This document shows, one piece after another, positions 17,032 to 38,468 of a stretch of 64,000 nucleotides of DNA (position 1 is the first letter of the stretch; every line of letters begins with the position of its first letter). A program made the position numbers and the translations under genes. The stretch is from a virus. The stretch covers positions 32,001 through 96,000 of the IMG/VR virus record IMGVR_UViG_3300025941_000015. One strand, 5' to 3'. The notes beneath the pieces are model-generated. The model was given only the letters and a program-made list of their open reading frames with translations. It did no database searches and was not told the origin of the DNA.

Positions 17032-17067
17032 TTGCTTTCCACAACGTTGTTGTGTACAGTGGTGTCC
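17032..17067 (+). promoter_or_regulatory. divergent leaderless promoter P1 with operator in the spacer
   Basis: TTGCTT-17-TACAGT-7-ATG 17068; CAACGTTGTTG at 17042. Confidence 0.65.
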
Positions 17068-17921
17068 ATGAGCAAATACGACACCATCGAGATCGACGTC
17101 TGCAGCGACTGCCTGAACTGGATCGCCAACGGCACCCTCCCCGACGACGGGGAGCGCGACGAAGTCAACGCCAACAGCTTCGACGCCATCACCACGGCCC
17201 CCGGCATCGACGAGGGCTACGACGTCGTGCCCGGTTCCGGCGACGACGAGGGGCACTTCTCCCACCAGCCGTGCGACGCCTGCCGCCGCCCGTTCGGTGG
17301 CCAGCGCTACAAGGCCACCATGATCTCCCCGATCCCCAACGACAGAGAGGAAGCCTGACATGGGCCAGATGAGTGCAGAAGAGATGGCCGCCGCCGTCGG
17401 CGAGCACGAGACCACGATGCGCATGGCGCTGACCTGGCACCTCACGAGCAACCACTTCCCCCCGGTCCACACGATGTTCGTGGACGCAGCGATGGAAGCG
17501 ATTCAGCTCGCTGCGGACGAGGACTTCGACTACGTCATCCATCTCCCCAACGACAAGGATCTGACGGTCACCGAGATCGTCGACGAGCTGCACCTGTGGC
17601 CGTTTGTCGACAACGCTCTTGGGGCAGACTTCGACTGATGTCAACGGTTGACCGAGTCCTCAGCGTCTTCGCCACGCCCGACTGCCCTGACTGTCAAGGC
17701 AAGGGAGTGGTGATGGGGCGGGTCTGGCAGAACGGTCGGGCTTGGGTCAAGGACAACGACCGGATCTGCAACTGTGTTCCGAGGATCACGGTGAGCCAGC
17801 GAAACTAGACCTTGGCGCTCCACCCTGGTAGGGGTCATTCAGTACGAGAGTGGCATCTCGGAAATGGGAGCGCTACATGCCACCGGAGGAGCGTCGGGTT
17901 TCGGCCCGGCGCTCTTTCGCG

Positions 17922-17965
17922 TCCTGAACCCCTATGTTCAGAAACCGATCCTGAACCCCTGTGTT
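17922..17965 (+). repeat. tandem TCCTGAACCCCT(A/G)TGTT in a non-coding stretch
   Basis: Copies at 17922 and 17949, 27 bp apart. Confidence 0.8.
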
Positions 17966-18094
17966 TCGATTCCCGTTTCACACGGGTACAACGTGTGCTG
18001 CGGCGGGCCCCTCGCAGCATCCCGAGCGGCCCGCCGACCAAGCCCCCTCCCCCTCCGCAACGATGTTGCGATCGTGTGACGATGGGCACCGAGG

Positions 18095-18129
18095 TTGGAA
18101 CAGCGTTGTGGACCGTGTACTCTGGCCAC
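18095..18129 (+). promoter_or_regulatory. cassette promoter P2
   Basis: TTGGAA-17-TACTCT-GGCCAC-ATG 18130 (gene to 18480). Confidence 0.85.
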
Positions 18130-19685
18130 ATGACACGAACCAAGCCAACCCACACACCGTCCTCGATCTACTCCGAGCCCAACCCCATGGAGCGCCTGCT
18201 CCGCCGTGCGACGTACGACCTGCGCAACGCTCAGCTCACGCTCGACGGCATCGACAAGGACATCCTCCGGCTGCGCAAGCTGGCCCGGCACTACGCCGAG
18301 GAGGGCAACCACAGCGCCAAGCGGAGCGCCAACGACCATGCCGATCGGCGGGTGCTCGAACAGCGCAAGAAGACCGTTGAGCGCGACGCCCTCCAGCAGG
18401 AGCTGGAAGTGCTCAAGGTGCTCGTGGCGAACCACGAGTACTGGGTACCGCAGCCCCGCTTCTGGGAGCAGCAGTCATGACCACCTACACCGCCGTGAGG
18501 GTGTCCCTCACCGCCTTCGCCGTCATGGACGGCAACGACATCGTCGCTGTGTGCGAGAACATGGCGACCGCCCGCAAGGTCTACGACGAGACGACCGAGA
18601 TCTACGCCTCGATCCCCCGTCGGTTCAAGATCATCAAGGTTCCCTACATCAAGGACGAAGCATGACCACCACCTCCGACACCCTCCTCCTGCTCGACAAG
18701 GCCACGGCGTACTGGTACGCCTGCGGCTACAACGACCACCGCGATGGGGACATCGCCCCGTACTGCGATCCGCACGCGTTCGCTGAGCACTGGATCGCTC
18801 TGTGCGCCCGGCCCTCTCGCCCCAGCATGCAGGACGCTTTCCAGCAGTTCGCATTCGGGGTGAAGTGCACCCGGTGCCACGGCAACGAGGTCATCACCGT
18901 CGGTGCCGACCGCCCGGACTACTGGGGCAACTACGACACCGAGGAGATCCCCTGCCCGGAGTGCCAGGGAGAGGTGGAGTGATGGACACGATCGACTACA
19001 ACGCCATGCAGGAAGCTGCCATGCACATCATCAGCGCCCAGCGCTCGCTGCCCATCATCCACACCGTCACCATCACCCTCGACGGGGCGACCGGCGGCGC
19101 CCTGGTCACCATCGAGGGATTCACCTCCGATGAGCTGGACGAAACACTCACCCTCGAAAGGACCGTCCGATGACCACCCTCCCCGACCTCGACAACGACA
19201 CGTTGAAGTACACGTTCAGGAAGCAAGACCCCACGTCGTACAAGATCGTGTACAACATCTGGCGCTCGATCAACGGCCGCCCCGAGCAGAAGATCGGCAC
19301 CGTCGTCAAGACCCGCGATGGCGACTGGAGCCAGTCGGCGCACTGGGTGGCTGAGAGCAGCGACGGCGAACACCGGGGCAGTGGCGACACTCGACAGAGT
19401 GCCGTGCGCTCGCTGGAGAACCGGCTGCAAGGGCCGGAGTACACCGAGCGGAAGCTCCAGGCGTACCGCGACCAGCTTGCCGCCGAGGGCGCCAAGGCGG
19501 CCGCAGCCAAGGCGGCGGACGAGGATCTGATCGACGCCCTCATGGCCCGCTGGCCAGCGATCGCCGAGCGGTTGCTCCCGCTCCGCGAGAACGCCGGTCG
19601 CTTCACCAGCTACGCCGTCACCACTCAGCAGGTCATCGACATGCTCAACGCTCTGGAGACTTCACGATGAATCTGACATCCGAGG

Positions 19686-19720
19686 TTGGCAACAGCGTTG
19701 CGGACGTGTACTCTGTTCAC
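19686..19720 (+). promoter_or_regulatory. cassette promoter P3
   Basis: TTGGCA-17-TACTCT-GTTCAC-ATG 19721 (gene to 20095). Confidence 0.85.
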
Positions 19721-20520
19721 ATGACCCCAACCACCATCTTCCAGTCCCTCTGGGACGCCCCGCTCTCCGCTCGTGGCTTCATGAGCATCTCGACCCACGA
19801 CGAGGTCACCTTCAACGGCCTGCAGCACGGCGAGCTGTCGATCATCGGCCTGCGCAACGTGGCGGGCCTGGGCACCACGCTCACGATCCACGAGAAGGGC
19901 AGCACGCACTGGACGGGCCGGGGCATGAAGCCCTCCTACAACGGCGCCTCGATCATCACGATCCTCATCTCGGACGACCTCTGGGCGGGCGGCACCTCGC
20001 GTCGCTACATCGAGCTGTCCCGTGCGATCTCCGCCTCGACCAGCGTCACCGAGCGCGACTCGCTCAACGCCCTCCACGTCGGGATGCTGCGATGAGCCCC
20101 GAGCTGACCAACGCCCTGGTCGCTGCACACCGCTCTGCGCAGCTCGCTGCCAGCAACGCTCGTGAAGCCCTGAGCTACGCACAGACGGCCCTCAGGAAGG
20201 CCCAGGAGGCCGCTGACGAGGCGGACCTCGCCGCTGCGCACATCGCCGGTGCCTTCAAGATCGTTGAGCAGGACGCACGATGAGCGCCCGCCCGAAGCTC
20301 GTGCCCGGCCACACGTACCGGTTCACGTTCACGCCGACCGAGGCGCTCATCGCTGCGAGGCCGTACAACGTGACCCCCTACACCACCACCGTGACCATCA
20401 GCACGACGCCCGGTGGCGTGCACACGCCCAAGTCGGTCACGATGTGGGCGAACCGCTGGTGCACCCGTGGCCGGTACACGGTCGAGATCGTCGAATTGGT
20501 CGAGGAATCTGCCTCCGAGG

Positions 20521-20555
20521 TTGTAACGGCGTTGTGAGCCGTGTATCTTGATCAC
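20521..20555 (+). promoter_or_regulatory. cassette promoter P4
   Basis: TTGTAA-17-TATCTT-GATCAC-ATG 20556 (gene to 20897). Confidence 0.85.
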
Positions 20556-21094
20556 ATGACCGCAACCACCACCACCGCACCCGCCACCTACGCCAAGGCC
20601 GCCGCCGTCGCCGAGCAGATCACGCTCGCCGAACTGGCCGAACTGCTCGCCGCCGACGACAACCCGGACGTCTACCCCGGCAAGGGCAAGCGCAAGCAGA
20701 TCGCCATGAACGCCCGCCTGCGGGTGAACACGCTCGACACGGGCGCCACCCGCGGCTGGGTCGGCTACGACCGCTGCACCTTCGGCACCGGCTACACGAC
20801 CTTCGACGGCGTCACGGTCGGCTACCGCTACGACCGGCCCGTGTTCCGCTTCGAGCGCCACGGCGTCCGCATCGTGCAGGTCGTGGTCCCGTCATGAGCA
20901 GCAAGAGCACGGCCGCCCGTCGGGCATCGCAGGCCCGGTCGAACTACGCCGCCATGAAGCGGGCGTCCGACCAGGGCAAGAAGCAACTGGCGTGCCCCCA
21001 CGAGGTCGTCAACCCCGTTGAGGGGTTCGAGGGCATGATCCAGTGCGCCGCCTGTGGCGCCTACGGACCTTTCTGAGGAATCACCTCATCGACG

Positions 21095-21128
21095 TTGCAA
21101 CGACGTTGAAACGGTGTACACTGGCCAC
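21095..21128 (+). promoter_or_regulatory. cassette promoter P5
   Basis: TTGCAA-16-TACACT-GGCCAC-ATG 21129 (gene to 21458). Confidence 0.85.
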
Positions 21129-21565
21129 ATGACAAACACCACCATCACCTCCGCCTGGAACTGCAACGACACGACCAGGACCGCCTCCGTCCTCACGGCC
21201 GAGCAGGCCGCTGCTGCGGGCATCCTGCTCGCCGACGACGACGAGTTCGTCATGAACCTCCGCTCCTGGGACGTCGACGCCCCGTTCTTCATCATCGGCC
21301 GCTTCACCGGCCGCACGCGTCGCATGTGGCAGGAGACGTGCCGCACGATCGAGACCTTCGATGTCGAGACCGTCGCCATCGAGGACGACCGCGACGGGAC
21401 GTTCGCCATCTGGGGCGTCAGCGGCGCACGGCGCAAGGGCACCTGGGCCTGCCGCTGATCTGCGCAGGTCGCTCCGGGCGGGGCGACCGTGCGCGTGCCG
21501 GGGAGACGGGTAGACGGGACCGTCTCCCCGGCGACAACATCGTACGAAGAATCCTCCCTCTGACG

Positions 21566-21599
21566 TTGGAACAGCGTTGAAGACGTGTACACTGATCAC
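21566..21599 (+). promoter_or_regulatory. cassette promoter P6
   Basis: TTGGAA-16-TACACT-GATCAC-ATG 21600 (gene to 21902). Confidence 0.85.
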
Positions 21600-22109
21600 A
21601 TGACCGCAACCACACTCTCCACCACATTCGGCCCCGTCAAGACGGGCTCGACCGCCGCCTTCATCGCTGTTGTCAAGGCCGAGCGCCTGTGCCGCATCGG
21701 CACGACGTCCGTCGAGGGCACCAAGGTGCTCTGGCGTGCCGAGACCAGCCAAGCGCTGGAGACGCGCCTGCGCCGGGCTGGCCTGGGCCGCTCGTCCGAG
21801 TCCGGCCTGTGGTTCATGCGTGGCCGCTCCTCGTTCGCCGAGGGCGCCATCGTCCCCGGCGAGCTGATCGCCACGGTCGAGATCGTCGAGGTGGCCAAGT
21901 GAGCCGCCGCATCTTCCCCACGTTCGAGGCGTTCGTCCAGTACCACCCGATGTACCTCCAGAACCGGTACGGCGGCAAGTGCTTCGAGTGCGGGCAGTTC
22001 GTCCCACAGTTCAAGGGCAGCGTGGTCAAGGTGCACGGGAAGCACCGCATCGCCCACCTCCCGGTCGAGGGCCATTGCGAGGGTGCGAAGTGATTCTTCC
22101 ACACCGAGG

Positions 22110-22143
22110 TTGCAATGCCGTTGAAGACGTGTACACTGACCAC
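22110..22143 (+). promoter_or_regulatory. cassette promoter P7
   Basis: TTGCAA-16-TACACT-GACCAC-ATG 22144. Confidence 0.85.
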
Positions 22144-22908
22144 ATGACAAACACCACCACCAACACCGCCCCGAACGCCCACCAAGCCGAAGTCGACGGC
22201 CGCATCGCCGAGGCGAGCGTCGCCTACGCCAAGGCCGCCCAGAACGCCGCCTGGTGGGAGAAGCACACCACGTCCGCCTACGACGGCGAAGCCAAGCTCG
22301 CCGAGGCCGTCGCCAAGCGCGACGACACCCTGGCCGCCCTCTCCGCGGTCGAGGCCGAGTTCGAGGGCTGGAGCCGCTTCTTCCTCGTGCAGGCCAGCAA
22401 CGGCCACATCCACAAGAGCCTGTGGTGCTCGACGTGCTTCCCCACGACGCAGTACGCCTGGCTCCCGGCCCTGTCCGGCCTGACCGAGGCCGAGGCCGTC
22501 GCCGAGTACGGCGGCATCCTCTGCTCGATCTGCTTCCCCTCCGCCCCGGTCGAGTGGACGACGGGCACGAACAAGAAGGACGCCGAGCGCAAGGCCGCTG
22601 AGGCCGCCTTGAAGGCGATCGCCAAGACGCCCGAGGGCAAGGCCGTCATCCGCAAGCGCGACCTCGTGCGCAGCCACCAGTACGCGATCGACTCGTTCGA
22701 CCGCACGATCGCACGGCCCGCCGAGACGATCGCATTCGCCGCCAGCCGGGGCATCACGGTCACGCTCGACGACGAGCGCGTCGCCAAGGAAGTGCAGTGG
22801 GCCAACGAGGCCCAGGCCAAGCGCGAGCCCGTCGTCAAGAAGCTGGCCAAGGCCCAGGCGCAGCTCGACGTCGCCGAGGCGGCGCTGAACGCCGCTCTGG
22901 GGATCTGA
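22144..22908 (+). CDS. Zn-binding hypothetical phage protein
   Basis: WSRFFLV...GHIH....CSTC...LCSICFPSAPVEW. Confidence 0.75.
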   Translation: MTNTTTNTAPNAHQAEVDGRIAEASVAYAKAAQNAAWWEKHTTSAYDGEAKLAEAVAKRDDTLAALSAVEAEFEGWSRFFLVQASNGHIHKSLWCSTCFPTTQYAWLPALSGLTEAEAVAEYGGILCSICFPSAPVEWTTGTNKKDAERKAAEAALKAIAKTPEGKAVIRKRDLVRSHQYAIDSFDRTIARPAETIAFAASRGITVTLDDERVAKEVQWANEAQAKREPVVKKLAKAQAQLDVAEAALNAALGI

Positions 22909-22929
22909 TCAGGAATCACCTCCACGACG

Positions 22930-22963
22930 TTGCAACGGCGTTGTGGAGGTGTACACTGATCAC
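22930..22963 (+). promoter_or_regulatory. cassette promoter P8
   Basis: TTGCAA-16-TACACT-GATCAC-ATG 22964 (gene to 23188). Confidence 0.85.
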
Positions 22964-23206
22964 ATGACTGCAACCACCACCTCCGTTTCCACCCTCGCCG
23001 CAGGCGCCGTCATGGGCGCCGCGGCCCGCTGCTTCGCCGTTGGCGACACGGGCCCCAAGAAGGGCCACCGCATCATCGCTGAGATGCGCGGCGAGCGCGT
23101 CGGAGCCGAGGCCGAATGGTTCGCCCTGTGCGGCGTGCTCGCGCTCGTCCGCTTCGTCAAGGTCTCGGGCATCACTGAGATCTTCTGAGGAATCACCGTC
23201 GCAACG

Positions 23207-23240
23207 TTGCAACAGCGTTGCGACGGTGTACACTGTTCAC
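23207..23240 (+). promoter_or_regulatory. cassette promoter P9
   Basis: TTGCAA-16-TACACT-GTTCAC-ATG 23241 (gene to 23501). Confidence 0.85.
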
Positions 23241-24326
23241 ATGACACAAACCACCACCATCGCATCCGCCTCCGCCTACGACACCCCGCACTGGCTGCGC
23301 AACGCCGGGCTCGACGTCGAGGGCACGCACGAGGCATTCGTCGTGCTGTTCGACGACCTCGACCAGGCGCTCGCCTGCGTCAAGCTGGCCAGCGCCCAGG
23401 CGTTCGCCGCCTACGTGCGCCAGGGCGGCAACGCCCGCAACAAGCGTGCGTTCAGCGCCCAGTTCGCAGCCGTGACCAAGGCCCTCCGGGCCGCAGCCTG
23501 ACCAACCACCACCAAGGAGAGAACCCCCACCACCATGAGCGCAGCTCGATACACCGTCATCGGAGCGTGGCACGACCACGACTCCACGTACTTCCCCTTC
23601 ATCGTCCAGGCCGCCGACCTCTTCGACAACCGCTCGAAGCAGCTCTACAGCAACGGCGCCATGCGCGTCGTCTTCGACGGCAAGCCCGCCGTGCGCGGCA
23701 AGGGCGGCACAACGCCCTTCAAGGGCGAGACCGCCTGGGCGCACGCTGAGAGCCTCGCACGCTCCCTGCAGGTCTCTGAGCGCTACGTGAGGACCGTCTG
23801 ATGGCGCGCCTCCCGCTCGCCGAGCGCCTCGCCATGGTGCTCAACAGCCTGCCGAGCTACGCCGAGGTCGACGTCGTGTGCGTGCCCTACGAGGGTGCGC
23901 GCACCAACGAGTTCCGGCTGATGGCCCGAGACTTCCCCACGTACGACATCGAGCTGTCCCGCCGGTTCACGAACCTCACGACCGGCACCGAGTGGTTCGT
24001 CAAAGCTGAATCGCTCGCAGCGTTCGGCGTAGTCTCGGTGGAGATCCACCTCGACGACGTCAAGAACTGGAGCATCCAATGAGCAAAGGTCACGGCTTCC
24101 CCAGCGAGATGATCCACACGCACGCCTTCGAGCTGCAGGCACACCGCAAGAGCACCGCAGGACGGGCCCTGGTGCCGCTCACGCTGTTGAAGAGCAACGA
24201 CCGGGCGGAAGTCGAGGCGGAGCACGCACGGCGCTCTGAGGTCAATTCACAGCTCCGCAACCCCAGCCGCCTCATCATCGTTGAGAACAAGCGGTGGCGA
24301 GATGATGGAGTTTCTGGCCCCTGAGG

Positions 24327-24361
24327 TTGGAACAGCGTTGTGCGTCGTGTATCTTGATCAC
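24327..24361 (+). promoter_or_regulatory. cassette promoter P10
   Basis: TTGGAA-17-TATCTT-GATCAC-ATG 24362 (gene to 24592). Confidence 0.85.
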
Positions 24362-24790
24362 ATGACCGCAACCACCACCTTCAAGATCACCGTCCCCGTC
24401 GCCCACGTCTGGGCCTCCGGCGCCATGCGCGGCACGGGCGTCCGCATCGTCGAGATCGTCGAGGAGGCCACCATCCTGGGCGGCTGCCGGGCGATCGACG
24501 CCGCCGTCGCCCAGTGCAAGCACCCCCTCGCCGACGCCTCGCCCGAGATCGAGCCCAACCCCGCCCTCATGGGCTGGGCGCTGGGAGCGTGAGCGCCGTG
24601 ACGACCCGTCGCCTCTGCCCCGGCCTCTACGAGGTCTCCACGCCCCAGGGCGTGTTCACGATCGACCGCATCACGAACGAGTACGGCGGCTCGACGTACA
24701 CCGAGTGGTTCATCACGTGGCCAGGCGAGCGGAGCCCCGACGCCATCGGCATCACGCTGCGAGACGCCAAGATGATTGTGGCGGCAGAGG

Positions 24791-24824
24791 TTGGAACAGC
24801 GTTGTGAGCGTGTACACTGACCAC
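24791..24824 (+). promoter_or_regulatory. cassette promoter P11
   Basis: TTGGAA-16-TACACT-GACCAC-ATG 24825 (gene to 25142). Confidence 0.85.
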
Positions 24825-25320
24825 ATGACAACGACCATGAGCTGCGACACCTGCTACGACACGAAGACCATCGACCAGGGCGGGCGCGAGATCCCCTGCC
24901 CGGACTGTGTCTTCCGGTATCACCCGTCGAGCGTGACGATCGAGACCAACCCGGACTACGACCCCAAGTCGACCTCGATGTTCAACGTCCGGTACATCAT
25001 CCGCGACCGCTCGATGGGCAACTTCATCTACGGGAAGGCCCGCAACATGGACGACGCCATCCGCATCCAGCGCAAGCGCCAGGGCGTGATCAAGGCGGCG
25101 CTCACCCGCCGGGCGAACAAGGCTGCGAGGGCCGCCAAGTGAGCACGCTCATCCACTACGGCAAGCCGCGCACGCGGTCGTTCCCGACCGACGTCGACAT
25201 CTGGCTCCCCGAGGGCGCCATCGTCCTCCACACCGAGCGCCATCGCGCTGCCACGGTCATCACGTACCTCGTGCCGAGCGGGCGCACGTCGAGGCCCATC
25301 TGAGGAATCTCACAACGGCG

Positions 25321-25355
25321 TTGCAAGAGCGTTGTGACCGTGTACACTGGTCACC
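25321..25355 (+). promoter_or_regulatory. cassette promoter P12
   Basis: TTGCAA-16-TACACT-GGTCACC-ATG 25356; extra CAACGGCGTTG at 25313. Confidence 0.85.
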
Positions 25356-25478
25356 ATGACAGGCAACCAAGACCACGACCAAGACCGCCGCTTCCCGGCC
25401 ATGACCGCCACCCGCTACGGCAGCAACCACGACTGGTGCTACCGGGGCGACAACACCAAGTACAAGAACAAGAAGTGA
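25356..25478 (+). CDS. 40-aa peptide missed by the ORF track (MTGNQDHDQDRRFPAMTATRYGSNHDWCYRGDNTKYKNKK)
   Basis: Starts at the leaderless position of P12. Confidence 0.55.
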   Translation: MTGNQDHDQDRRFPAMTATRYGSNHDWCYRGDNTKYKNKK

Positions 25479-25545
25479 GCCCCAGCGGCCACTGTCACAC
25501 CCCCCAGTCACACTGAATCCCCTACCCAACGAAACCAGGAGAACC

Positions 25546-25929
25546 ATGACCACCACCATCAGCAACCCCGAGGTCCGCTCGACCGACCTCCTCGTGCACG
25601 AGCTGCTCGTGCAGCTCCGGGCCGCCGAGCGCGCCGAGGAGCGCGCCGACGCCATCAAGGCCGAGCTGGTCGAGCGCCTGGGCGACGGCGGCAAGGTTGA
25701 GACCCACGAGGCGAAGATCGCCATCGTGGCCAACAAGACCCAGGTCGTCGACATCGACGCCCTGCAGACCGTCGCCTCGAAGGGCTTCTTCTACAAGGTC
25801 ACCAAGCGGGTCGTCGACAACACCGCCTTCAAGGCGTTCCTCGCCCTGGAGCAGGTGCCCCAGGACGTGCTCGACATCGTGACCACGAAGGTCAGCAAGC
25901 CCGCCGTCCGAGTCACGATCAAGAAGTGA
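25546..25929 (+). CDS. hypothetical protein (similar to 980..1405)
   Basis: AGGAG RBS; similar sequence pattern. Confidence 0.7.
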   Translation: MTTTISNPEVRSTDLLVHELLVQLRAAERAEERADAIKAELVERLGDGGKVETHEAKIAIVANKTQVVDIDALQTVASKGFFYKVTKRVVDNTAFKAFLALEQVPQDVLDIVTTKVSKPAVRVTIKK

Positions 25930-26223
25930 TCCTCGACGACGGCCACCAGCACCACGTCGAGATCGAGCGTGAGAACCTCCCGCCCCGCTCGTGGTACCCA
26001 CGCTGCGACTGCGGCTGGGAGGGGTTCGGCCAGGCGTCTCGACGTGACGCTGAGGACGACGGCGACGGCCACGTCCTCAGCTTCACCCGCTGATCGCCCG
26101 TCGACGTGAGGCCGGTCAGGTAGGTGGCGCCACTGACGACCGGCCACAGCGCCCGGTAAAGCCGGATCGGGTTGGGAGCGCCCTCTGCACACCGCAGGGG
26201 GCGCTCTCGCGTACGCTGGAGCC

Positions 26224-26991
26224 ATGGAGTCTCGATCGAGGAGCCGGGCGCCGTCGGGCGCCGACCCGCACCTCGCTGCGCGCCTGGGGCGCCAGCAGGA
26301 GAACCGTGATCGCATCATCGGTGCGGGCGCCGGTCGCGAGCGCGTGCTGGGCAATCGAGCTGCGCTCTTCGAGGCCGGTGAGATCGACTTCGACCCGCAC
26401 ACGCTGTCGATGGAGTCGCTGGGCATCCGCAACGTCGAGCGCGACGTGCTGCACAACCGTGTCGAGAACAAGGTGCCGTACGGGCCGCACGATGCGTCGG
26501 TGTTCCGCAAGGCTGGTGAGGTGCGAGAGGTGCCCCTGACGGGCCCTGACGCCGTCACAACGATGCAGAGCCACGTGAGCCCCGCACGTGTCGCTGAGAT
26601 CGTCAGAGACCCGCACAGCGGCTCTGATCCACGCTTCCGAGGCACGCCTGCAGCCGAGATGCCACTGGTCGTCGAGCACATGACGCGCCACCCGGAGACG
26701 GGCGCCTGGGGCCGCACGAACGTGGTCTACAACGGCAACCACCGCATCGTCGCGGCCCTGCAGCAGGGGCAGACCTCGATCCCCGCTCGTGTCATCACGA
26801 GGGAGCAGCGCGAGTCTGCGTCCGACGTGTTCCGGCGAGACAGGACGCGCTTCAAGGACTCACGAGAGCAGCGCCTCGATGTCGGCAGCACCCGCCTGGT
26901 GATGGGCGATCCCACGATCAAGAGGGGCATGGGCGCTGGCATCTGGGACGAGGTCGCCAAGCAGGACATCGAGAACTACGGGAATACCTAG
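26224..26991 (+). CDS. ParB/Srx-like domain protein
   Basis: VTTMQSHV...MPLVV...VVYNGNHRIVAA...IPARVI; TACGCT-6-ATG. Confidence 0.65.
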   Translation: MESRSRSRAPSGADPHLAARLGRQQENRDRIIGAGAGRERVLGNRAALFEAGEIDFDPHTLSMESLGIRNVERDVLHNRVENKVPYGPHDASVFRKAGEVREVPLTGPDAVTTMQSHVSPARVAEIVRDPHSGSDPRFRGTPAAEMPLVVEHMTRHPETGAWGRTNVVYNGNHRIVAALQQGQTSIPARVITREQRESASDVFRRDRTRFKDSREQRLDVGSTRLVMGDPTIKRGMGAGIWDEVAKQDIENYGNT

Positions 26992-27000
26992 CCCGGCAGG

Positions 27001-27034
27001 TTGCAACTGCGTTGTGGTCGTGTACACTGGCCAC
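27001..27034 (+). promoter_or_regulatory. cassette promoter P13
   Basis: TTGCAA-16-TACACT-GGCCAC-ATG 27035 (gene to 27403). Confidence 0.85.
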
Positions 27035-27560
27035 ATGACCTACCACACCACCACCCCCGCCAACTACACCCCCGTCCTTGGCTCCGTTGTCCCCGGACCC
27101 TGGAACTCGAAGTACGCCGTCTCGGAGCACACGCTCGCCGTGAACCTCGCCAGCACCGCTGCGATCGAGGACGACGACCACACGGTCGTCCGGGCGATCG
27201 ACGACGCCGTCGCCGTGTTCGAGGACGACGACCTCATCAACGACGGCTCGATCCGAGGCTTCTGGGCCTGGGTCTGGAGCGGGCTCGACCGCGGCACGCA
27301 GCGTGACGTCGCCAAGCGCGCCGAGGCGCTCCTCGAAGCGCACCGCGCTGGCGGGTACGGCAGCAAGGCCGACCTCTTCGAGATGTTCGACGGCCAGCGG
27401 TGAGCGCGCTCACTGGCAAGGCGCTCGTCGAGCACCGCCGGGACCGCCTCGCCGACCTCGTCGAGATGCGGGCCCGGCAGGCCGCCGAGCTGGCCGAGAC
27501 CGATGAGGCGATCGCCGAGTGCATCGCCTCGATCCTCGACGCAGCCTCCGAGGAGCTGTC

Positions 27561-28196
27561 ATGAACCAGAGTCACGAGGATTGGCTCAACGCCGCCGGAG
27601 ACCCGGCCGCCACGCACGCCCTGATCAACCAGGCGGGCTCGTACGAGAACGGCCCGCACCAGCTCCCCCACACCACGCTGATCGCCGGGCTGATGTACGG
27701 GGCAGGCGCCCTCTACGTGCCGAAGGGCCGTGCGCAGTTGTGGTACGCCCTCGTCGTCCCGCTGTTCATCGCCGGGTGCCACTTCCTCCGCGACGGGGGC
27801 CGCACCCCGGCCTCTGAGTCATCGTGGTGGTGGTACGGCGAGTTCCACCAGACCCCGCTCTCGCTGTTCTTCTTCGCCCTGTCGATCGCCAGCGTGTTCC
27901 TGCTGAACGCCGAGGTGAACCGGCACAAGCGTGCCCGGTACTACGCCGCGGCCGCTGCCGCTCAGCTCGACGCAGACACCGCCTGGATCGCTCAGGGCGG
28001 GCGCACGGTCGTCGAGGCGACGGTTCGCTCTCACAACGACGTTGAGCCCTCACAGGGCCACACAGCGCCTCTCCCGACGTTGTGGCTGCCGAGCAGCCCC
28101 GAGCGCCGGGTGCGCCGTGGCGGCACGACGCTCAACGGCACACCGATCAAGGATCGCCGATCGGTCAACCCCGAGACACTCTTCGACGAGTACTGA
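27561..28196 (+). CDS. membrane protein
   Basis: About three hydrophobic segments; GAGGAG RBS. Confidence 0.6.
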   Translation: MNQSHEDWLNAAGDPAATHALINQAGSYENGPHQLPHTTLIAGLMYGAGALYVPKGRAQLWYALVVPLFIAGCHFLRDGGRTPASESSWWWYGEFHQTPLSLFFFALSIASVFLLNAEVNRHKRARYYAAAAAAQLDADTAWIAQGGRTVVEATVRSHNDVEPSQGHTAPLPTLWLPSSPERRVRRGGTTLNGTPIKDRRSVNPETLFDEY

Positions 28197-28206
28197 CAAC
28201 CCATGG

Positions 28207-28240
28207 TTGCAACAGCGTTGTGACCGTGTACACTGCACAC
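28207..28240 (+). promoter_or_regulatory. cassette promoter P14 (leadered)
   Basis: TTGCAA-16-TACACT, short leader with GGAG, ATG 28269. Confidence 0.8.
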
Positions 28241-28268
28241 CGACCCCTACCCACTGGAGAACGCCACC

Positions 28269-29000
28269 ATGGCACGAATCAACACCGTCAAGAGCGCGCA
28301 GCAGCGCTACCGCACCGTCCCCGTCCTCGACGAGGCGGGCCAGCCCAAGAGCACCCCGGTGCTCCGCAAGGACGGCACGCCCAAGACCACCAAGACCGGC
28401 CGGGCCATCACCCGCCGGGTGACGGTCGCCGACAAGACCCAGCCGCTGCCCAACCACACGTGCGGCAAGTGCGGTGTGGAGATCGAGGTCGGCCACCCGT
28501 ACCGCTGGGTGCAGATCAAGAGCGGCCCGTACGGCGGACGCACGATGTACCGCTGCATGAGCTGCCCCTCGTGGCGCCAGTCCGAGCTGACCAGCTCGAA
28601 GATGGCGGGCATCTACGCCGCCCAGGAGCACCTGAGCGACATCATCGACAGCCTGGAGACGGTCGACGATCTCACCGACGCAGCGCAGACGTTCGCCGAT
28701 GCCGTCCGCGAGGTCGGCGAGGAGTACCGCGAGTCGCAGTCCAACATGGTCGACGGCTTCGGCCACGACACCTCGATGAGCGACGAGCTGGGCGAGAAGG
28801 CCGACATGCTCGACGACTGGGCGAACGACATCGAGTACCTCGACTTCGAGGACTTCGACGAGGAGCCGCCCGAGGAGGACGACTTCGAGGATGAGGACGC
28901 CTTCGAGACCGCCAAGGAGGACTGGAACGCGAACGCTGACGCCCACTGGGAAGACCAGCGCGCCGTCCTCATCGACGCATCGGACGAGTGCCCGCTCTGA
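28269..29000 (+). CDS. Zn-ribbon protein with acidic helical C-terminus
   Basis: CGKCG...CMSC; D/E-rich tail. Confidence 0.7.
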   Translation: MARINTVKSAQQRYRTVPVLDEAGQPKSTPVLRKDGTPKTTKTGRAITRRVTVADKTQPLPNHTCGKCGVEIEVGHPYRWVQIKSGPYGGRTMYRCMSCPSWRQSELTSSKMAGIYAAQEHLSDIIDSLETVDDLTDAAQTFADAVREVGEEYRESQSNMVDGFGHDTSMSDELGEKADMLDDWANDIEYLDFEDFDEEPPEEDDFEDEDAFETAKEDWNANADAHWEDQRAVLIDASDECPL

Positions 29001-29621
29001 TGCGCAAGCGGGCCGTGCTCGAACACATCGGCAAGTACGTCGAGATCGAGCACGGCCCGTTCCGGCCCCGCAGCCTGGCCATCGTGCTGGGCTACGGGTA
29101 CCGGCAGCGCCACGGTCGCGGCTCGCCGCTCGAAGAAGACTGGACGTCGCGCTCAGGCGGCAGCCAGGTCGCCGTGGCCATGCGCCACGAGGACGGCTCG
29201 TGGACCCCCGAGGCCGTCCATCTGATTTCAATCCACCGATGCTCCGAGGAGGAGTCATGAACCGAGATGCCCCCATTCTGCGACTGGTCACACCGGCCGT
29301 CGATCACGCTGTTGACGTCGTCATGCACAACGCTGACCCCGAGCGCTTCCACCGCCAGCACGGCGTGCCGTGCGAGCTGTGCCCCGAGCCCGAGACCGAG
29401 CTGCAGAAGGAGATCGCTCGCAAGATCGATGAGCTGATGGGTGACACCGAGATGGCCCCGTGGCAACGCAAGCTGGCCAGCGAGGTGCTCGCCGCACAGA
29501 TGGCGCCTGACAGCATCGAGATGTCCGACGCACTGCAGACCTACCTCGACGACCGCAGCCTGATGGCTGACCCCGGCGAGATCGAGGACGACGAAGATGA
29601 CGAAGAGATTGACGAGTGAGG

Positions 29622-29655
29622 TTGCAACGGCGTTGCGACCGTGTACACTGATCAC
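29622..29655 (+). promoter_or_regulatory. cassette promoter P15
   Basis: TTGCAA-16-TACACT-GATCAC-ATG 29656. Confidence 0.85.
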
Positions 29656-30369
29656 ATGACCAACGCCACCGCAACCCCCCGCCAGTTCGACTTCATCGCC
29701 AAGCTCGTTGACGAGCGCAAGGCCACCTGCGGCGTCACCGACGTCGCCGCCTTCATGCAGGTGCTCGCCGACCAGCGCCTCACCAAGACCGGCGCCAGCG
29801 CCCTCATCGACAACCTGCTCTCGCAGAAGCCGGACGCCAAGGTCGCCCCGGCCCCGGTCGCAGGCGCCACCCCGGCCCAGCCCGCGGTGCGCCCCAACCG
29901 CTTCGACGCCAAGTGCGACCGCTGCGGCAAGAACGTGCCCGCGGGCACCGGCACGCTCAACGGTGGCCCTGGCCGCTGGATCGTCGCCCACGTCGAGGGT
30001 GGCTGCCCGGTCGACCTGCAGGTCGAGCTGAACCAGCTCCTCGCCGAGATCCCCAAGGGCTACTACGCCATCCCGTTCATCGGCCTCGACGCCGCCCGCA
30101 ACGACCTCACCTTCCTCGCCGTCGGCACGAAGGACAACGGCGACCGCACGCTGCGCCACGTGGTCGGTGGCCACGGCGAGCTGGACGGCATGAGCATCGA
30201 GTGGTGCCGCCGGGCCGTCGCCGGGCTCAACGCCACGAGCCTCGAAGTGGCAGCCGCCACCTACGGCCAGGAGTACTCCCACTGCGGACGCTGCGGCCGG
30301 TCGCTGACCGACGACGCCAGCCGTGCCCGCGGCATCGGCCCGGAGTGCGCCACCAAGCTCTGGAGCTGA
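29656..30369 (+). CDS. DUF6011-like Zn-finger protein
   Basis: YG....HCGRCGRSLTDDASRARGIGPECA. Confidence 0.75.
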   Translation: MTNATATPRQFDFIAKLVDERKATCGVTDVAAFMQVLADQRLTKTGASALIDNLLSQKPDAKVAPAPVAGATPAQPAVRPNRFDAKCDRCGKNVPAGTGTLNGGPGRWIVAHVEGGCPVDLQVELNQLLAEIPKGYYAIPFIGLDAARNDLTFLAVGTKDNGDRTLRHVVGGHGELDGMSIEWCRRAVAGLNATSLEVAAATYGQEYSHCGRCGRSLTDDASRARGIGPECATKLWS

Positions 30370-30375
30370 CCACGG

Positions 30376-30417
30376 CAACGGGGTTGCGATTGGCGCAACC
30401 CCGTGTACACTGACCAC
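30376..30417 (+). promoter_or_regulatory. cassette promoter P16 (palindromic variant, leadered)
   Basis: TTGCGA-16-TACACT-GACCAC; 11-bp inverted repeat 30378-30404. Confidence 0.75.
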
Positions 30418-30459
30418 ACCCTTCCCCTACCAATGACAACCACCAAGGAGACCACCAAC

Positions 30460-31170
30460 ATGAACACCGACACCACGATCCTCGTCTCGAAGATCGAGAA
30501 GCTCTGGCGCAAGGCCAACAGCGCGGGCTCGACCCCGGCCGAGCGTGACACGTTCGAGGCCAAGGCCCTGAGCCTCATGGAAGAGAACCGCATCACGATG
30601 GCGATGCTGGAGATCGACGACCAGGACATCCTGGGCGACTACGAGTACGGCGACATCTCGGGCCGCTACGCCCGGCCCGTGCTGGCCATCTTGACCGCCG
30701 TGGCCCACGCCTACGACTGCAAGGTCTGGTGGCGCGACTTCGGCTCGACGAAGCAGGTCTGGCTGTTCGGCTTCAAGAGCGACTGCGAGCGCACCAAGCT
30801 GCTCGCCCGCATGCTCATCGCCGATGCGCAGGCGCAAGCCACGTCCGAGTCGGGCTACTCGCCCGGCGAGACGTTCTCGTTGCGCCACAGCTTCCTCCAC
30901 GGCTTCTCGTCGGCGATCGCCATGCGTCTCCGCGAGGCCGCCGTCATGGCCAACAAGGCGTTCGACCAGGAGGCCGCCAAGGGCTCCGCCCTGGTGCTCG
31001 TGGCCCGCCGTGAGCAGATGCACGTGGAGTACTCGAAGAAGCGCCTGCGCAGCGCCAGCCCGAGCTACGCCCGTCGGGGCGGCGCCCGTGGCCGCGGCGT
31101 CGAGGCGGGCAACAACGCCCGTCTCTCGACGCAGGGGCAGGTCGTCAACCGCAAGGCGCTCGCATCATGA
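30460..31170 (+). CDS. DUF2786-domain protein
   Basis: KIEKLWRKA...TPAERDTFEAKALSLM; SFLHGFSSAIAMRL. Confidence 0.75.
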   Translation: MNTDTTILVSKIEKLWRKANSAGSTPAERDTFEAKALSLMEENRITMAMLEIDDQDILGDYEYGDISGRYARPVLAILTAVAHAYDCKVWWRDFGSTKQVWLFGFKSDCERTKLLARMLIADAQAQATSESGYSPGETFSLRHSFLHGFSSAIAMRLREAAVMANKAFDQEAAKGSALVLVARREQMHVEYSKKRLRSASPSYARRGGARGRGVEAGNNARLSTQGQVVNRKALAS

Positions 31171-31673
31171 GCAGCGACCCCGACAAGGACACGGTGTACG
31201 CCGCTGAGGCGCTCGCCTTCCTGGGCACGCCCCTCGCAGACCGCCAGCAGGAGTCGAGCATCGTGGAGGGCTACCACACGATGCTCGACGCCCCCTGGTG
31301 GAAGTGGGGCACCATCGAGATCCGCCAGGCACGCGCCGACATGGTGCGCGCAGGCGGGTACGCCAGCCTGTTCGGCATCAGCACGAGCGCTGGCCGCGTG
31401 GAGCGCTACACGATCAGCCACGAGCTGGCTCACATGGTGGTCAAGCGCCAGGGCATCTGTGATCGACACGGGCCCCAGTTCCGCACGGCGCACCTGTACA
31501 CCGTCGGTGCCGGGTTCGGCCGCCAGTACGCAGACCTCCTCGCTCAGGCGTACGAGGACTACAACCTCCCGGTGTTCCTCACGCCGGGTGGGCTGGGCAT
31601 CCCCCCGGTGCCCACGATCAACATCGATGCTCTCAGCATCGCAGCAGCCCCTCGGGGCGGATGGAGAAGGTAA
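31167..31673 (+). CDS. HExxH metallohydrolase (TIGR04338/SprT-like)
   Basis: VYAAE...ISHELAH...HGPQF. Confidence 0.75.
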   Translation: MSSDPDKDTVYAAEALAFLGTPLADRQQESSIVEGYHTMLDAPWWKWGTIEIRQARADMVRAGGYASLFGISTSAGRVERYTISHELAHMVVKRQGICDRHGPQFRTAHLYTVGAGFGRQYADLLAQAYEDYNLPVFLTPGGLGIPPVPTINIDALSIAAAPRGGWRR

Positions 31674-31864
31674 TGATGGTTCACACAACGGACATCGCAG
31701 GCATCCGCGACATCGCTCAGCACTTCGGTGTGAAGCCCAACGTCGTCAGCAACTGGTCAGCTCGCTACAGCGACTTCCCCGCGCCGATCGCAGAGGTGGC
31801 TGCTGGCCGCCTGTGGGATCTGCAGGAGGTCGTCGAGTGGTACAACGATCGCTGGGCATCGTGA
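31673..31864 (+). CDS. AlpA/excisionase-like HTH protein
   Basis: GIRDIAQHFGV....VSNW..RY.DFPAP.......LWD..EV.EW. Confidence 0.75.
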   Translation: MMVHTTDIAGIRDIAQHFGVKPNVVSNWSARYSDFPAPIAEVAAGRLWDLQEVVEWYNDRWAS

Positions 31865-32568
31865 TCCAGAGTCTGGAGCGCGTCGCACACGACGAGGCGT
31901 ACCACGTCGCGAGGCGCTCGAAGCACGGCGACTTGAAGCAGATCACGCGCAGCACGGGTGACCTCGACGAGGCACGAGCGTGGTGCCACGACGCTGACAC
32001 CGTCGTGGTGCTCGTGCGCTCCGAGACGTACGTGGTGCGCTGATGGGGCTCCAGTCACACTCCAGGCGTGCACGGCTGACCAAGGTCATCATCGCCCCGC
32101 CGGTCGCACCCGGCAAGCGTCGGTGCCAGGGTGAGATCTACGAGCGCGCTCGTCACCATCACGTGGCGATCGGCTACGACGCCGGGGGCCACCGCGTCTG
32201 GCAGAAGCAGTGGATCGACGAGCACCTTCGCCCGTGTCTCAACCCGTGCTCGACGTTCGTCACTGAGGTCAACTACTGCGCGCATCACATGCCCACCGAC
32301 TGGGTGGTGCTCGCCAACGCTCGTGTCGAGCTGTGGAACCAGCTCTCGATCGAGGCATGGGAGCACGTGCTCGACACGTACCCTGGCATCGACCCGTGAC
32401 GCGCAAGCTCGTCACGTCACACGTCGGTGATGCGCAGCGCGCCATCATCGGCGAGTGGTGGACCGATGAGATCATCACCAACCAGTACGTCCCCGACGAC
32501 AAGGTCTACATCATCGACACCGACGCACTCGATGTGATCCTCGCACCGGAGTGGATATGGGAGTGAGG

Positions 32569-32603
32569 GTGGAACAGCGTTGTGCGTCGTGTACACTGAC
32601 CAC
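32569..32603 (+). promoter_or_regulatory. cassette promoter P17
   Basis: GTGGAA-17-TACACT-GACCAC-ATG 32604 (gene to 32828). Confidence 0.8.
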
Positions 32604-32973
32604 ATGCCTACCACCATCACCTACACCACCCCCTTCGGAGAAGCCGCCTCGTTCACGATCGAGGTCGACCCGGACACCGGCCACGCCACGATCACGGCCG
32701 ACCTCCGCGACGGCAATGCAGGCGTCGCTCACTTCGTCGACCTCATCGCGGCGACCGACGTCGCGCTGCGCATCGTGCGCCAGGGCATCGAGGCCAACGC
32801 CTCGATCGCACCGTGGATCGAGGTGTGACTCGAACGCCCGCCGCCTCCGGGCGGCGGGCTCCACGGGGCGGGCCAGCGGCCACGCCGCTACCGCACCCGG
32901 TGGGGACGGGATCCGCCATGCACTTCGTGCGATCGAGCCTCGCGCAACGGCGCTGAGGAATCTCGCATGCAGG

Positions 32974-33008
32974 TTGGAACGGCGTTGTGCACCGTGTACG
33001 CTGTTCAC
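32974..33008 (+). promoter_or_regulatory. cassette promoter P18
   Basis: TTGGAA-17-TACGCT-GTTCAC-ATG 33009. Confidence 0.85.
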
Positions 33009-34538
33009 ATGACCTTCACCACCACCGAAACCCGCTCCGCCCTCGGCGCCCTCGCCGACATCATCATGCCGCACCTCGCCGGTCAGGCCGTCAGCATCCC
33101 CACGGGCCTCGCCCACATGTCCTCGGCGCACGACGCTGAGCTGGTCGGCCACCCGCTCGCATCGGTGCTCTTCCCCTACCAGCGCGCAGGCGTGGCCTAC
33201 GCCCTCAAGGCACGCCGTGCCATGATCGGTCACGGCATGGGCCTCGGCAAGACCATCCAGGCCATCGCCACGCTCATGGCCAGCGACAGCTACCCGGCCG
33301 TCGTCGTCGTGCCGCCGAACCTCGCGCTCAACTGGGTCCGCGAGTTCGCGAAGTGGGCGCCCTCGATCACGACGGCCCGCCTCACCGGCCAGACCCCTGG
33401 CTCGATCCCCGACGTCGACGTGCTCATCATCGGTGACTCGGTCGTCGCCCACTGGGCCGACACGATCATCGCCCACGGTCCCCGCGCCCTCGTGATCGAC
33501 GAGTCGCAGCGGATGAAGAACCGCAGCGCCAAGCGGACGAAGGCGGTGCTGGAGATCAGCCGCAAGCTCCCGGCCGATGCCATCGTGCTCGCCCTGACCG
33601 GCACGGCCGTCAAGGCCAACCACGGCGAGCTGCTCCCGCAGATCGAGATCCTCGGCGTCACCGACCTCTTCGGCGGCACGTTCGAGTACCTCAACCGCTA
33701 CTACCCCAAGGTCGGCCGCTTCGACCGCGAGAACCGCAACGGCCTGGAGCTGTTCAATCGCATGAGCGATTCGTTCTACGCACGCCTGCAGTTCGAGGAC
33801 GTGGCCTACCAGATGGGCGACAGCGCGCCGCAGGGTGTCATCCGGGTGCCGCTCGCCGTCGAGCTGGAAGGCAAGGCCGGTCGTGACTACACGAAGGCTC
33901 GTGACAACCTCCGCTCGTACCTCATCGAGACCCGCGGCGAGCGCGCCGCCAACAGCGCCATGCGCGCTGAGGCCCTCGCCCAGCTCGGTGTGCTGCGTCA
34001 GCTCATCGGCCTGGCCAAGGTCATCCCGACCGCCGCTCACGTGCGCAACCTCGTCGAGGACGGCGAGCAGGTCATCGTGTTCGCATGGCACCGCGCCGTG
34101 GTCGACGAGCTGGTCGAGGCCATCAGCGCCTTCACCACGGTCGGCAAGGTCTACGGCTCGATGAAGGTTGAGAACGTCGAGGCTGCCAAGGAGCGCTTCC
34201 AGGCCGGGACCGACCGGGTCATCGTCCTCAACATCGAGGCGGGCTCGGTTGGCCACACGCTGACCGCCGCAGCGAACGTGGTCTTCTGCGAGTACGCCTG
34301 GAGCCCCTCGGACATGCAGCAGGCTGAGGCCCGCTCGAACCGCATCGGCCAGACCCGCAAGGTCGTCAGCCACTGGCTGATGGGAGCCAACGGTGTGCAG
34401 ACGATCGACGAGCGCCTCGTCGAGATCCTCAACGACAAGGCCCTCATCACTGGCACACTGCTCGACGGCAAGGGTGAGACCATGGTCGACAGCGACTCGA
34501 TCACCGACGCCCTGCTCGATTGGGCAGAGAACGGCTGA
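33009..34538 (+). CDS. SNF2/HARP-like helicase
   Basis: LFPYQ, MGLGKTIQA, IDESQ, LTGT, GHTLTAA, QAEARSNRIGQ. Confidence 0.9.
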   Translation: MTFTTTETRSALGALADIIMPHLAGQAVSIPTGLAHMSSAHDAELVGHPLASVLFPYQRAGVAYALKARRAMIGHGMGLGKTIQAIATLMASDSYPAVVVVPPNLALNWVREFAKWAPSITTARLTGQTPGSIPDVDVLIIGDSVVAHWADTIIAHGPRALVIDESQRMKNRSAKRTKAVLEISRKLPADAIVLALTGTAVKANHGELLPQIEILGVTDLFGGTFEYLNRYYPKVGRFDRENRNGLELFNRMSDSFYARLQFEDVAYQMGDSAPQGVIRVPLAVELEGKAGRDYTKARDNLRSYLIETRGERAANSAMRAEALAQLGVLRQLIGLAKVIPTAAHVRNLVEDGEQVIVFAWHRAVVDELVEAISAFTTVGKVYGSMKVENVEAAKERFQAGTDRVIVLNIEAGSVGHTLTAAANVVFCEYAWSPSDMQQAEARSNRIGQTRKVVSHWLMGANGVQTIDERLVEILNDKALITGTLLDGKGETMVDSDSITDALLDWAENG

Positions 34539-37717: not shown

Positions 37718-37840
37718 GCAACGCTGTTGCACAAGACCTGTGTGATCCCCGTATCACCACAGGGTGCGGGAGGATACCAGCAGGGCGTGCCGAACACAAC
37801 GTCGTTGCAGTGTGACGTCTGACCTACGCAACGACGTTGT
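37718..37840. promoter_or_regulatory. cluster of three CAAC-N3-GTTG palindromes
   Basis: CAACGCTGTTG 37719, CAACGTCGTTG 37797, CAACGACGTTG 37829 in non-coding DNA. Confidence 0.7.
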
Positions 37841-37940
37841 GATCCAGCCGCCTGCACGGTAGCCTACCCCCCCACCGCTTAACCGATCTGACGCCAGCCG
37901 GGCGGGCCAGGTCACCCTCAGTCGTAAAGGCCCTTCAACC

Positions 37941-38378
37941 CTATTCCTCGTACTCAAGAGCAACGGAGTTGTCGTACTCAAGCCCCAACAAGGCCATACG
38001 CTCCTGGTGCTTCTCCCAATACCACTCCACTGCATCGTCGTAGTCGTTGAAGTGCTTCTCGATACGCCGCCCGTCTGGCCACCGCAGGCGACAGCGCCAA
38101 CGGCCCTTGTGCCACCCAACATTCGGTGTTTCCACTGAAACGCTGTTGAGCTGGTTGTGGCGATCGCCCCCTATACGCAGGTTGCGCCTCCGGTTGTCCA
38201 GCGTGTTCTTGTTGATGTGGTCGACCACGTCACCCGGCTGGGCGCCCATGATGTGCCGGTGGAGGTACACCATCTTGCCGTTCAAGCGCCTTACGGCATA
38301 GCGGTAGCTCTTCCCATGGCGCCCAAACTCGCAGATGTACCAGCCTGTGAGGTCAATATCCGGGTCGGCAACGATCAT
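37941..38378 (-). CDS. HNH homing endonuclease with AP2-like C-terminus
   Basis: YLHRHIM...VVDHINKNTLDNRRRNLR; GVW-like/WRCRL...KHF. Confidence 0.85.
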   Translation of the reverse strand: MIVADPDIDLTGWYICEFGRHGKSYRYAVRRLNGKMVYLHRHIMGAQPGDVVDHINKNTLDNRRRNLRIGGDRHNQLNSVSVETPNVGWHKGRWRCRLRWPDGRRIEKHFNDYDDAVEWYWEKHQERMALLGLEYDNSVALEYEE

Positions 38379-38405
38379 GTCGAAAGGGTAGCAGCGCAGG
38401 GGCTG

Positions 38406-38442: not shown

Positions 38443-38468
38443 CCTCCCTCTACCAAGGAGGATCAGCA

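Follow-up and report, generated by a model that had tools for sequence, protein, structure and literature searches.

Repeated promoter-like units with predicted leaderless start codons in the genome of an uncultured soil phage

The DNA analysed here (the window, 64,000 nucleotides (nt)) comprises bases 32001-96000 of one virus record, IMGVR_UViG_3300025941_000015, which is 105,626 bp long and derives from an uncultured soil phage of ca. 106 kb; positions are those of the window unless marked as genome positions. The record is typed as linear by IMG/VR, its completeness by CheckV is 100%, and the + strand carries nearly all genes of the genome. Products encoded in the window include baseplate and tail-fibre proteins and a family-A DNA polymerase. 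The subject of this report is an array of 18 copies of a ca. 45-base unit, all on the + strand between positions 17032 and 33011, which precede unrelated small genes. The nearest named relatives of the phage are the Streptomyces myophages BRock, Alone3, LuckySocke, and GiJojo, the last a member of actinobacteriophage cluster BS (PMC11465772), at an amino-acid (aa) identity of only ca. 30%.

The repeated unit and its start codons

Seventeen copies yielded the consensus GAGG-TTG(C/G)AAC-(A/G)GC-GTTG-N5-6-GTGTACACTG-NN-CAC-ATG-AC-N4-ACC-ACC-A. In an alignment of 46 distinct copies, taken from this genome and its relatives, the bases TTG.AA, GCGTTG, GTGTAC.CTG, and CAC were invariant or nearly so. 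The core, GTGTACACTG, was found at no more than one mismatch 25 times in the window, versus 3.7 +/- 2.0 times in shuffled sequences, and a search with the full 37/38-nt consensus at no more than three mismatches returned ten copies with a 5-nt inner spacer and four with a 6-nt one (expected number, 0). Every copy reported in the initial annotation was recovered (18/18), and a motif scan of the whole genome confined them to genome positions 49-65 kb, on the + strand only. Copies are 277-2185 bp apart, as the earlier figure of 0.3-2.2 kb implied, and stop codons of upstream genes lie within the unit or just ahead of it. The copies are as follows; the ATG is the predicted start of the gene behind each, lengths are those of its product, and L numbers denote related contigs.

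17032-17070, + strand: divergent first copy (TTGCTT ... TACAGT); ATG 17068; 96-aa gene matching phrog_3034
18095-18132, + strand: 17-bp spacer; predicted leaderless ATG 18130; 116 aa
19686-19723, + strand: TTGGCAAC variant; ATG 19721; 124 aa
20521-20558, + strand: GTGTATCTTG subtype, like the copy at 24327; ATG 20556; 113 aa
21095-21131, + strand: ATG 21129; 109 aa
21566-21602, + strand: ATG 21600; 100 aa; entire unit missing from L009
22110-22146, + strand: ATG 22144; 254 aa, phrog_2433
22930-22966, + strand: long stem-loop around the -35 box; ATG 22964; 74 aa; unit absent from L009, where a chimeric repeat is found
23207-23243, + strand: 16-bp stem around the -35 box; ATG 23241; 86 aa
24327-24364, + strand: GTGTATCTTG subtype; ATG 24362; 76 aa
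24791-24827, + strand: ATG 24825; MTTT head in frame with MSCDTC; 45-bp unit missing in L006, L019, and L020
25321-25358, + strand: ATG shifted one base later, 25356; 40 aa
27001-27037, + strand: ATG 27035; 122 aa; length of the head varies in relatives, always in frame
28207-28271, + strand: leadered mRNA predicted, with a GGAG Shine-Dalgarno site; ATG 28269; 243 aa
29622-29658, + strand: ATG 29656; 237 aa, DUF6011
30384-30462, + strand: atypical, with hairpin GGGGTTGCG-ATTGG-CGCAACCCC in place of GCGTTG; ca. 42-nt leader predicted; AAGGAG, ATG 30460; DUF2786/DUF7168
32569-32606, + strand: -35 box GTGGAA; ATG 32604; 74 aa
32974-33011, + strand: final copy; ATG 33009; 509-aa SNF2-type helicase

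Read as a promoter, the unit consists of a -35-like TTGSAA, a spacer of 16-17 bp, and a -10-like TACACT, a spacing that agrees with the one first proposed. The ATG lies at +15 from the start of the core in 14 copies and at +16 in two (cores at 17052 and 25340), i.e., 6 nt past the end of the TANNNT-type -10 box in 14 copies and 7 nt past it in two. Since TACACT is taken as the -10 box at -12 to -7, the predicted +1 falls on the A of the ATG. Each of these 16 promoter-proximal ATGs opens an open reading frame (ORF) of 40-509 aa. The 15 nt that precede them are the conserved core and contain no purine-rich Shine-Dalgarno site; a Shine-Dalgarno-like motif (GGAG, GAGG, AGGA, or similar) stands ahead of 16 of 25 internal genes. 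Behind the copies at 28207 and 30384, genes begin 43 and 57 nt past the start of the core, following GGAG and AAGGAG, respectively, and the predicted leaders are 43 nt and ca. 42 nt long. In one relative (L008), the 30384 unit has a frame-changing pair of indels between its first and second ATG with AAGGAG kept, and this stretch therefore behaves as a non-coding leader. The view that starts in the array are leaderless and free of Shine-Dalgarno sites would thus hold for 16 of the 18 copies, the other two being predicted to be leadered instead.

Comparison with relatives bears on the same point. Gene 27035 occurs there with three head-length variants, each in frame with the conserved body, and we therefore argue that its translation begins at the promoter-proximal ATG. 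The distance from the -10 box to the ATG is kept in every new copy contributed by relatives, including copies ahead of genes that are not in this genome. In Mycobacterium smegmatis, the SigA -10 element is TANNNT between -6 and -13, ca. 24% of transcripts are leaderless, and an ATG or GTG at the 5' terminus suffices for translation to start; the requirement of actinobacterial SigA promoters for a -35 element is weak (PMC6448022). The geometry of the array sequences is that of such leaderless SigA promoters (TANNNT at ca. -12 to -7, predicted +1 on the start codon). The core also contains a GTG in frame with the ATG, so longest-ORF calls overshoot the predicted starts, which bears out the initial annotation's remark that the ORF track runs through the repeat.

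The predicted leaderless proteins start with MT(x)TTT, encoded by a Thr-rich, G-poor head, ATG-ACN-NNN-ACC-ACC. From +4 to +33, G makes up 10.4% of the leaderless genes and 28.0% of the 25 internal genes (Mann-Whitney p=3e-7), while from +34 to +93 it makes up 30% in both sets; C and A together account for 80% of the head. The low G content is possibly a matter of shared sequence that travels with the unit, or it may reflect selection for an unstructured, CA-rich 5' end. CA-rich downstream sequence is reported to enhance leaderless translation in E. coli.

One to five genes, mostly orphans, follow each unit, and the downstream ones have Shine-Dalgarno sites or stop-start coupling. Pfam and PHROGs searches with 30 array and neighbouring proteins mostly gave no match; the SNF2 helicase is one array product with a recognised family. 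The orphan content of the array is supported in silico, and the early or anti-host role that the initial annotation gave to its genes is conjectural. One ORF, 31860-32046, ends in ...VRSETYVVR and precedes gene 32043, its stop overlapping the next start (TGATG); on contig L005 the two genes after it are missing, exactly from its stop to the edge of repeat 32569.

Variation among related contigs

Scanning JGI metagenomes for the motif yielded 19 contigs, of which 16, all from soil, are relatives of the array and three (L010, L017, and L022) were dropped as chance matches. The related contigs are 69-99% identical in DNA sequence, and all carry the unit with its ATG at the same offset. No match to the array was obtained by megablast against 50,697 phage records, motif scans of IMG/VR gave a single chance match and nothing else, and a locus search seeded with the array's helicase gave none.

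Among the relatives, the array region is highly variable. Contig L009 is without unit 22930-23206, and the single repeat remaining there is identical to copy 22930 on the upstream side of the core and to copy 23207 on the downstream side; it is also without unit 21566-22109, the leftover repeat being like copy 22110 in its downstream half and resembling copy 21566 in its upstream flank. In L018, the upstream half of copy 30384 is joined to the downstream half of copy 29622, after which gene 29656 starts a second time; the end of unit 29622, just ahead of repeat 30384, is thereby linked to the beginning of that unit. Such a junction fits either a tandem duplication or a circle-type junction; it is no simple wrap-around, because 2 of 101 bases distinguish its two copies.

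Heads of genes are gained and lost as well. Gene 24825 starts with MTTT-MSCDTC here and in L015 and L016, and with MSCDTC in L006, L019, and L020, where its start lies behind a Shine-Dalgarno site or in an ATGA overlap; a clean ca. 45-bp indel, equal to the unit, separates the two forms. In L020, a unit stands 33 nt upstream of gene 23535, in frame, while the same gene has only a Shine-Dalgarno site in this genome, and a homologue of gene 20556 occupies the place of gene 24362. Other differences are unrelated to the repeats: L008 has an inserted gene for an HNH endonuclease, L021 lacks gene 20092, and sequence has been replaced near 25927-26176 and near 27550.

The initial annotation had also taken the repeats to be recombination homology by which genes are shuffled, to be checked against the breakpoints in relatives. 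Twelve of 37 unique similarity breakpoints fall inside extended repeats, which make up 9.3% of the span (p=9e-5 under a uniform null), but a preference of breakpoints for repeats was rejected when tested against a gene-boundary null (p=0.69). What stands of the claim is that gene content varies, that some differences end at repeats, that repeats at junctions are chimeric, and that 45-bp heads are gained and lost in frame; enrichment over gene edges does not stand. As judged from the contig sequences, the repeats take part in exchanges and are no hotter than other gene boundaries. Homologous rather than site-specific exchange is favoured, since a RecA-like gene is present and searches of the genome for tyrosine and serine recombinases (PF00589, PF00239) gave no match.

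Palindromes, stem-loops, and the search for a regulator

The conserved bases outside the promoter consensus form three palindromes: TTGCAA, CAAC-N3-GTTG, and GTGTACAC. A 9-bp stem with arms GGTTGCAAC and GTTGYGRCC and loop NGC lies over the -35 box; in the 46-copy alignment, 81.6% of cells are paired, falling to 28-53% when the partner arm is slid by 1-3 columns. With its many G-U pairs, the stem can form only in RNA of the + strand. Longer stems of 13-16 bp, with arms that differ from copy to copy, were found in a few copies only (22930, 23207, 30384, and one in L020), and in the full set of copies the outer arms for the most part do not pair. A terminator scan found fewer terminators than in shuffled sequences, and an Rfam search found no relevant family. 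Because long stems occur in few copies, outer arms are mostly unpaired, and no U-tract follows, we assign the stem-loop a probable attenuator role in some units and do not count it among the defining parts.

The palindrome CAAC-N3-GTTG occurs 22 times in the window versus 0.7 expected, and 30 times genome-wide. Seventeen of the genome copies lie outside the array (e.g., 49714, 53701, 54961, and 56545), several of them inside structural genes. Such dispersal fits the binding site of a DNA-binding protein, by analogy with the palindrome of Cluster O mycobacteriophages discussed below. The operator role that the initial annotation gave to the unit is suggested by the embedded palindromes, and no regulator that would act on them was found. 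ORF 42307-42726, considered as a helix-turn-helix regulator, had no Pfam match. The minus-strand gene beside a cluster of the palindromes, considered as a repressor, encodes an HNH endonuclease.

Several side observations belong to the same sequences. Five CAAC-N3-GTTG sites cluster at 37719-38687, in a low-GC, partly non-coding stretch (to 38697) that contains a long inverted repeat, CAACGTCGTTGCA ... GCAACGACGTTG, and that may be where a regulator binds or may be an origin. The HNH endonuclease gene there (37944-38378, - strand) is one of the very few that the genome carries on the minus strand. A second HNH gene, at 628-1066 of L008, is an insertion found only in that relative, between gene 29656 and repeat 30384; both endonucleases are probably homing endonucleases. 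Another motif, CCTGAACC(CC), is present 15 times on the + strand and twice on the - strand of the genome (e.g., 7494, 11987, 13112, 15142, 16610, 17923, 17950, and 58763); its copies often seem to encode (I/V)LNP, and two stand in tandem within the apparently non-coding stretch 17900-17970. The head/structural region contains a 2023-aa ORF (52388-58459, + strand) without a PHROG match at E<=1e-5.

Origin, function, and relation to known elements

Two genes of the window bear on the interpretation:

6426-7544, + strand: gene for a RecA-like recombinase (PF00154, E=1e-42)
7974-8219, + strand: WhiB-family gene (PF02467, E=1e-13), in the replication module next to the array

The presence of the WhiB-family gene and the restriction of array-gene homologues to actinophages, from which alone they are known, indicate an actinobacterial host. 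The WhiB-like protein may modify how sigma-A promoters are used, and the RecA-like protein is a candidate enzyme for recombining short repeats, both links being conjectural.

The anatomy of the unit, its statistics, its restriction to one region, and its variation among relatives are observations. To account for them we propose, as the probable though by no means certain explanation, that the repeats are leaderless promoters of the host SigA/HrdB type, with embedded palindromes and a stem-loop, which double as recombination substrates. Promoter activity, transcription start site, timing, regulator binding, and the enzyme of recombination are predictions in this proposal. The principal (SigA/HrdB-type) sigma factor of the host would direct its RNA polymerase to the units. 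The A of the ATG being at the expected +1, 16 of the 18 units would give leaderless mRNAs, with ribosomes loading at the 5'-terminal AUG. As internal AUGs would have no Shine-Dalgarno site, the first gene of each unit would be translated mainly off its own promoter's transcript. The palindromes and the 9-bp stem-loop would probably serve as an operator for some regulator, as a read-through attenuator, or both. Because the units are near-identical direct repeats of 40-70 bp and the phage encodes a RecA-like protein, they are expected to be substrates of homologous recombination, which may have deleted or duplicated whole units and shifted the promoter-plus-start head to other genes. Neither sigma70 region 2 nor region 4 was found in a six-frame translation of the genome, and no single-subunit (T7-type) RNA polymerase was found there either, a weak negative since the controls for that family were also silent; the host holoenzyme is the default for this reason.

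A number of points weigh against this proposal. The -35 and -10 hexamers match the E. coli consensus at only 8 of 12 positions, and a generic sigma70 promoter scanner called no promoter in the array. What supports the promoter reading of the initial annotation in silico is its geometry, with the predicted leaderless start. Conservation of spacer and flanks exceeds what recognition by a sigma factor needs, so the units may depend on a phage factor. Searches of the genome gave no regulator, those for HTH_3 and HTH_17 being without a match, and long hairpins are limited to a subset of copies with no U-tract after them. Breakpoints at gene edges fall at repeats in 10 of 27 cases, while repeats are borne by 16 of 40 gene junctions (p=0.69). 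The junctions themselves come from short-read metagenome contigs, some of which could be strain chimeras.

Some of these points would suit phage-specific, middle-type promoters, read by host RNA polymerase with a phage factor (the WhiB-like protein on region 4 of sigma-A, or an activator that binds CAAC-N3-GTTG), in the manner of the MotA-dependent middle promoters of T4. Invariant bases beyond the hexamers (GCGTTG, GTG before the -10 box, G..CAC after it), the modest match to the E. coli consensus, the WhiB gene in the adjacent replication module, and the excess of CAAC-N3-GTTG, also outside the array, would all be expected of such promoters. We nevertheless regard them as unlikely, though worth keeping in mind: no gene for an activator, a sigma factor, or an RNA polymerase was recognised in the genome, and the -35 and -10 boxes, as they stand, have a geometry sufficient for actinobacterial SigA (PMC6448022).

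The units might instead punctuate one long transcript at the RNA level, the stem-loop acting in termination, processing, or stability and the ATG serving as an internal start independent of a Shine-Dalgarno site. A G-U-reliant stem-loop that forms on the + strand only and is kept in most copies, genes that run in one direction, and upstream stop codons at the units all agree with this. It would leave unexplained, however, why TTGSAA, 16-17 bp, TANNNT, 6-7 nt, and ATG follow one another in ca. 46 distinct copies; long stems are confined to a subset of copies, no Rfam family matches, and AUGs inside a transcript with neither a Shine-Dalgarno site nor coupling would be poor starts. We consider this explanation improbable. 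Still further down the scale, and hardly credible, is an integron-like system in which the repeats are sites of a site-specific recombinase. Imperfect palindromes do flank single-gene units, and whole units are gained and lost, but the genome contains no match to either recombinase family (PF00589, PF00239), the chimeric repeats are consistent with exchange anywhere along the shared sequence, and the units have promoter-like boxes of their own, unlike attC sites.

Closest in layout to the proposed leaderless promoters are the PeSLs of T4-type phages (RB49/phi1, T4/PST, KVP40/nt-1), which are repeated sigma70-type early promoters with stem-loops that can overlap the -35 box (PMC2839356, PMC4122927). 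PeSLs stand upstream of orphan genes in the hyperplastic parts of their genomes, and indels that distinguish sister phages are explained by recombination between PeSLs (PMC2839356). Their promoters are strong, close to the sigma70 consensus, and of demonstrated activity, the stem-loop serves as terminator or attenuator, a Shine-Dalgarno site and a start codon close the unit, and neighbouring units can exchange to give mini-circles, a product that the L018 junction would also fit. The array is likewise made of composite repeated units directly upstream of orphan genes in a hyperplastic region (18 copies in 16 kb), with sigma70-type promoter-like boxes, a stem-loop that can overlap the -35 box, and the upstream stop codon in the unit; its relatives lose, gain, or replace units with chimeric units at the junctions, and the phage encodes a recombinase. 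Unlike PeSLs, the array unit contains no Shine-Dalgarno site (16/18) and no AT-rich tract, and it ends in a start codon and a few Thr codons fused in frame; its boxes are non-consensus and palindromic, and its copies are far more uniform, following one 45-bp consensus. Nor is the phage a T4-type myovirus infecting Gram-negative bacteria or cyanobacteria, given its actinobacterial host and ca. 30% identity to Streptomyces BS-cluster phages. The analogy with PeSLs made in the initial annotation, as a system of a distinct kind, is therefore upheld for the layout, and the Shine-Dalgarno site and T4-type lineage are not shared.

Cluster O mycobacteriophages (the Corndog group) have 8-9 predicted leaderless SigA-like promoters and more than 30 copies of a 17-bp palindromic repeat, TGTTCGG-N3-CCGAACA, proposed to be the site of a DNA-binding protein (PMC4351075). 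They, too, are actinophages with predicted leaderless promoters, an N3-centred palindrome dispersed in intergenic and coding DNA, and indels ascribed to recombination between repeats. Their promoters and palindromes are, however, separate, with palindromes mostly off promoters, whereas here a palindrome is inside an 18-copy promoter unit. Short conserved motifs present in many copies across an actinophage genome, by gene starts or as repressor sites, are also known as the start-associated sequences of Cluster K mycobacteriophages, which contain a ribosome-binding site and are not promoters, and as the stoperators of Cluster A, which are asymmetric repressor sites of temperate phages. The array unit differs in having promoter geometry and no ribosome-binding site, and neither an integrase nor a repressor was found in the genome.

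The Streptomyces phage Alone3 (L024, BS cluster) has no comparable array, only a few two-copy promoter-like repeats with hairpins (33665-33721 and 34049-34105; 39727-39803 and 39945-40021). In these, TTGACA is followed by a spacer that holds a hairpin, then by a -10-like box and a Shine-Dalgarno site; they lie upstream of small genes and resemble PeSLs with leaders.

A bolder version of the leaderless-promoter proposal can be put forward tentatively, at well below even chances: the 45-bp unit, with promoter, start codon, and G-poor Thr-rich stub, may be a portable head that recombination can weld in frame to any gene, its CAAC-N3-GTTG and GTGTACAC palindromes placing 18 heads and ca. 17 dispersed sites under one phage DNA-binding protein. 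If this is true, the head would turn a Shine-Dalgarno-coupled cistron into an independently transcribed leaderless one (cf. genes 24825 and 23535), and the shared palindromes would act as a switch across the whole genome, much as stoperators do, though here in a lytic phage.

On the proposed reading, genome plasticity based on promoter cassettes of the PeSL kind would extend from T4-type phages to actinobacteriophages, and transcription start, translation start, and first codons would form a single exchangeable unit. Such units would explain errors of gene callers at starts in these regions and may provide a small and probably strong element for leaderless expression in actinobacteria. The variation among soil contigs would then amount to a set of natural experiments on how phages add and rewire accessory genes.

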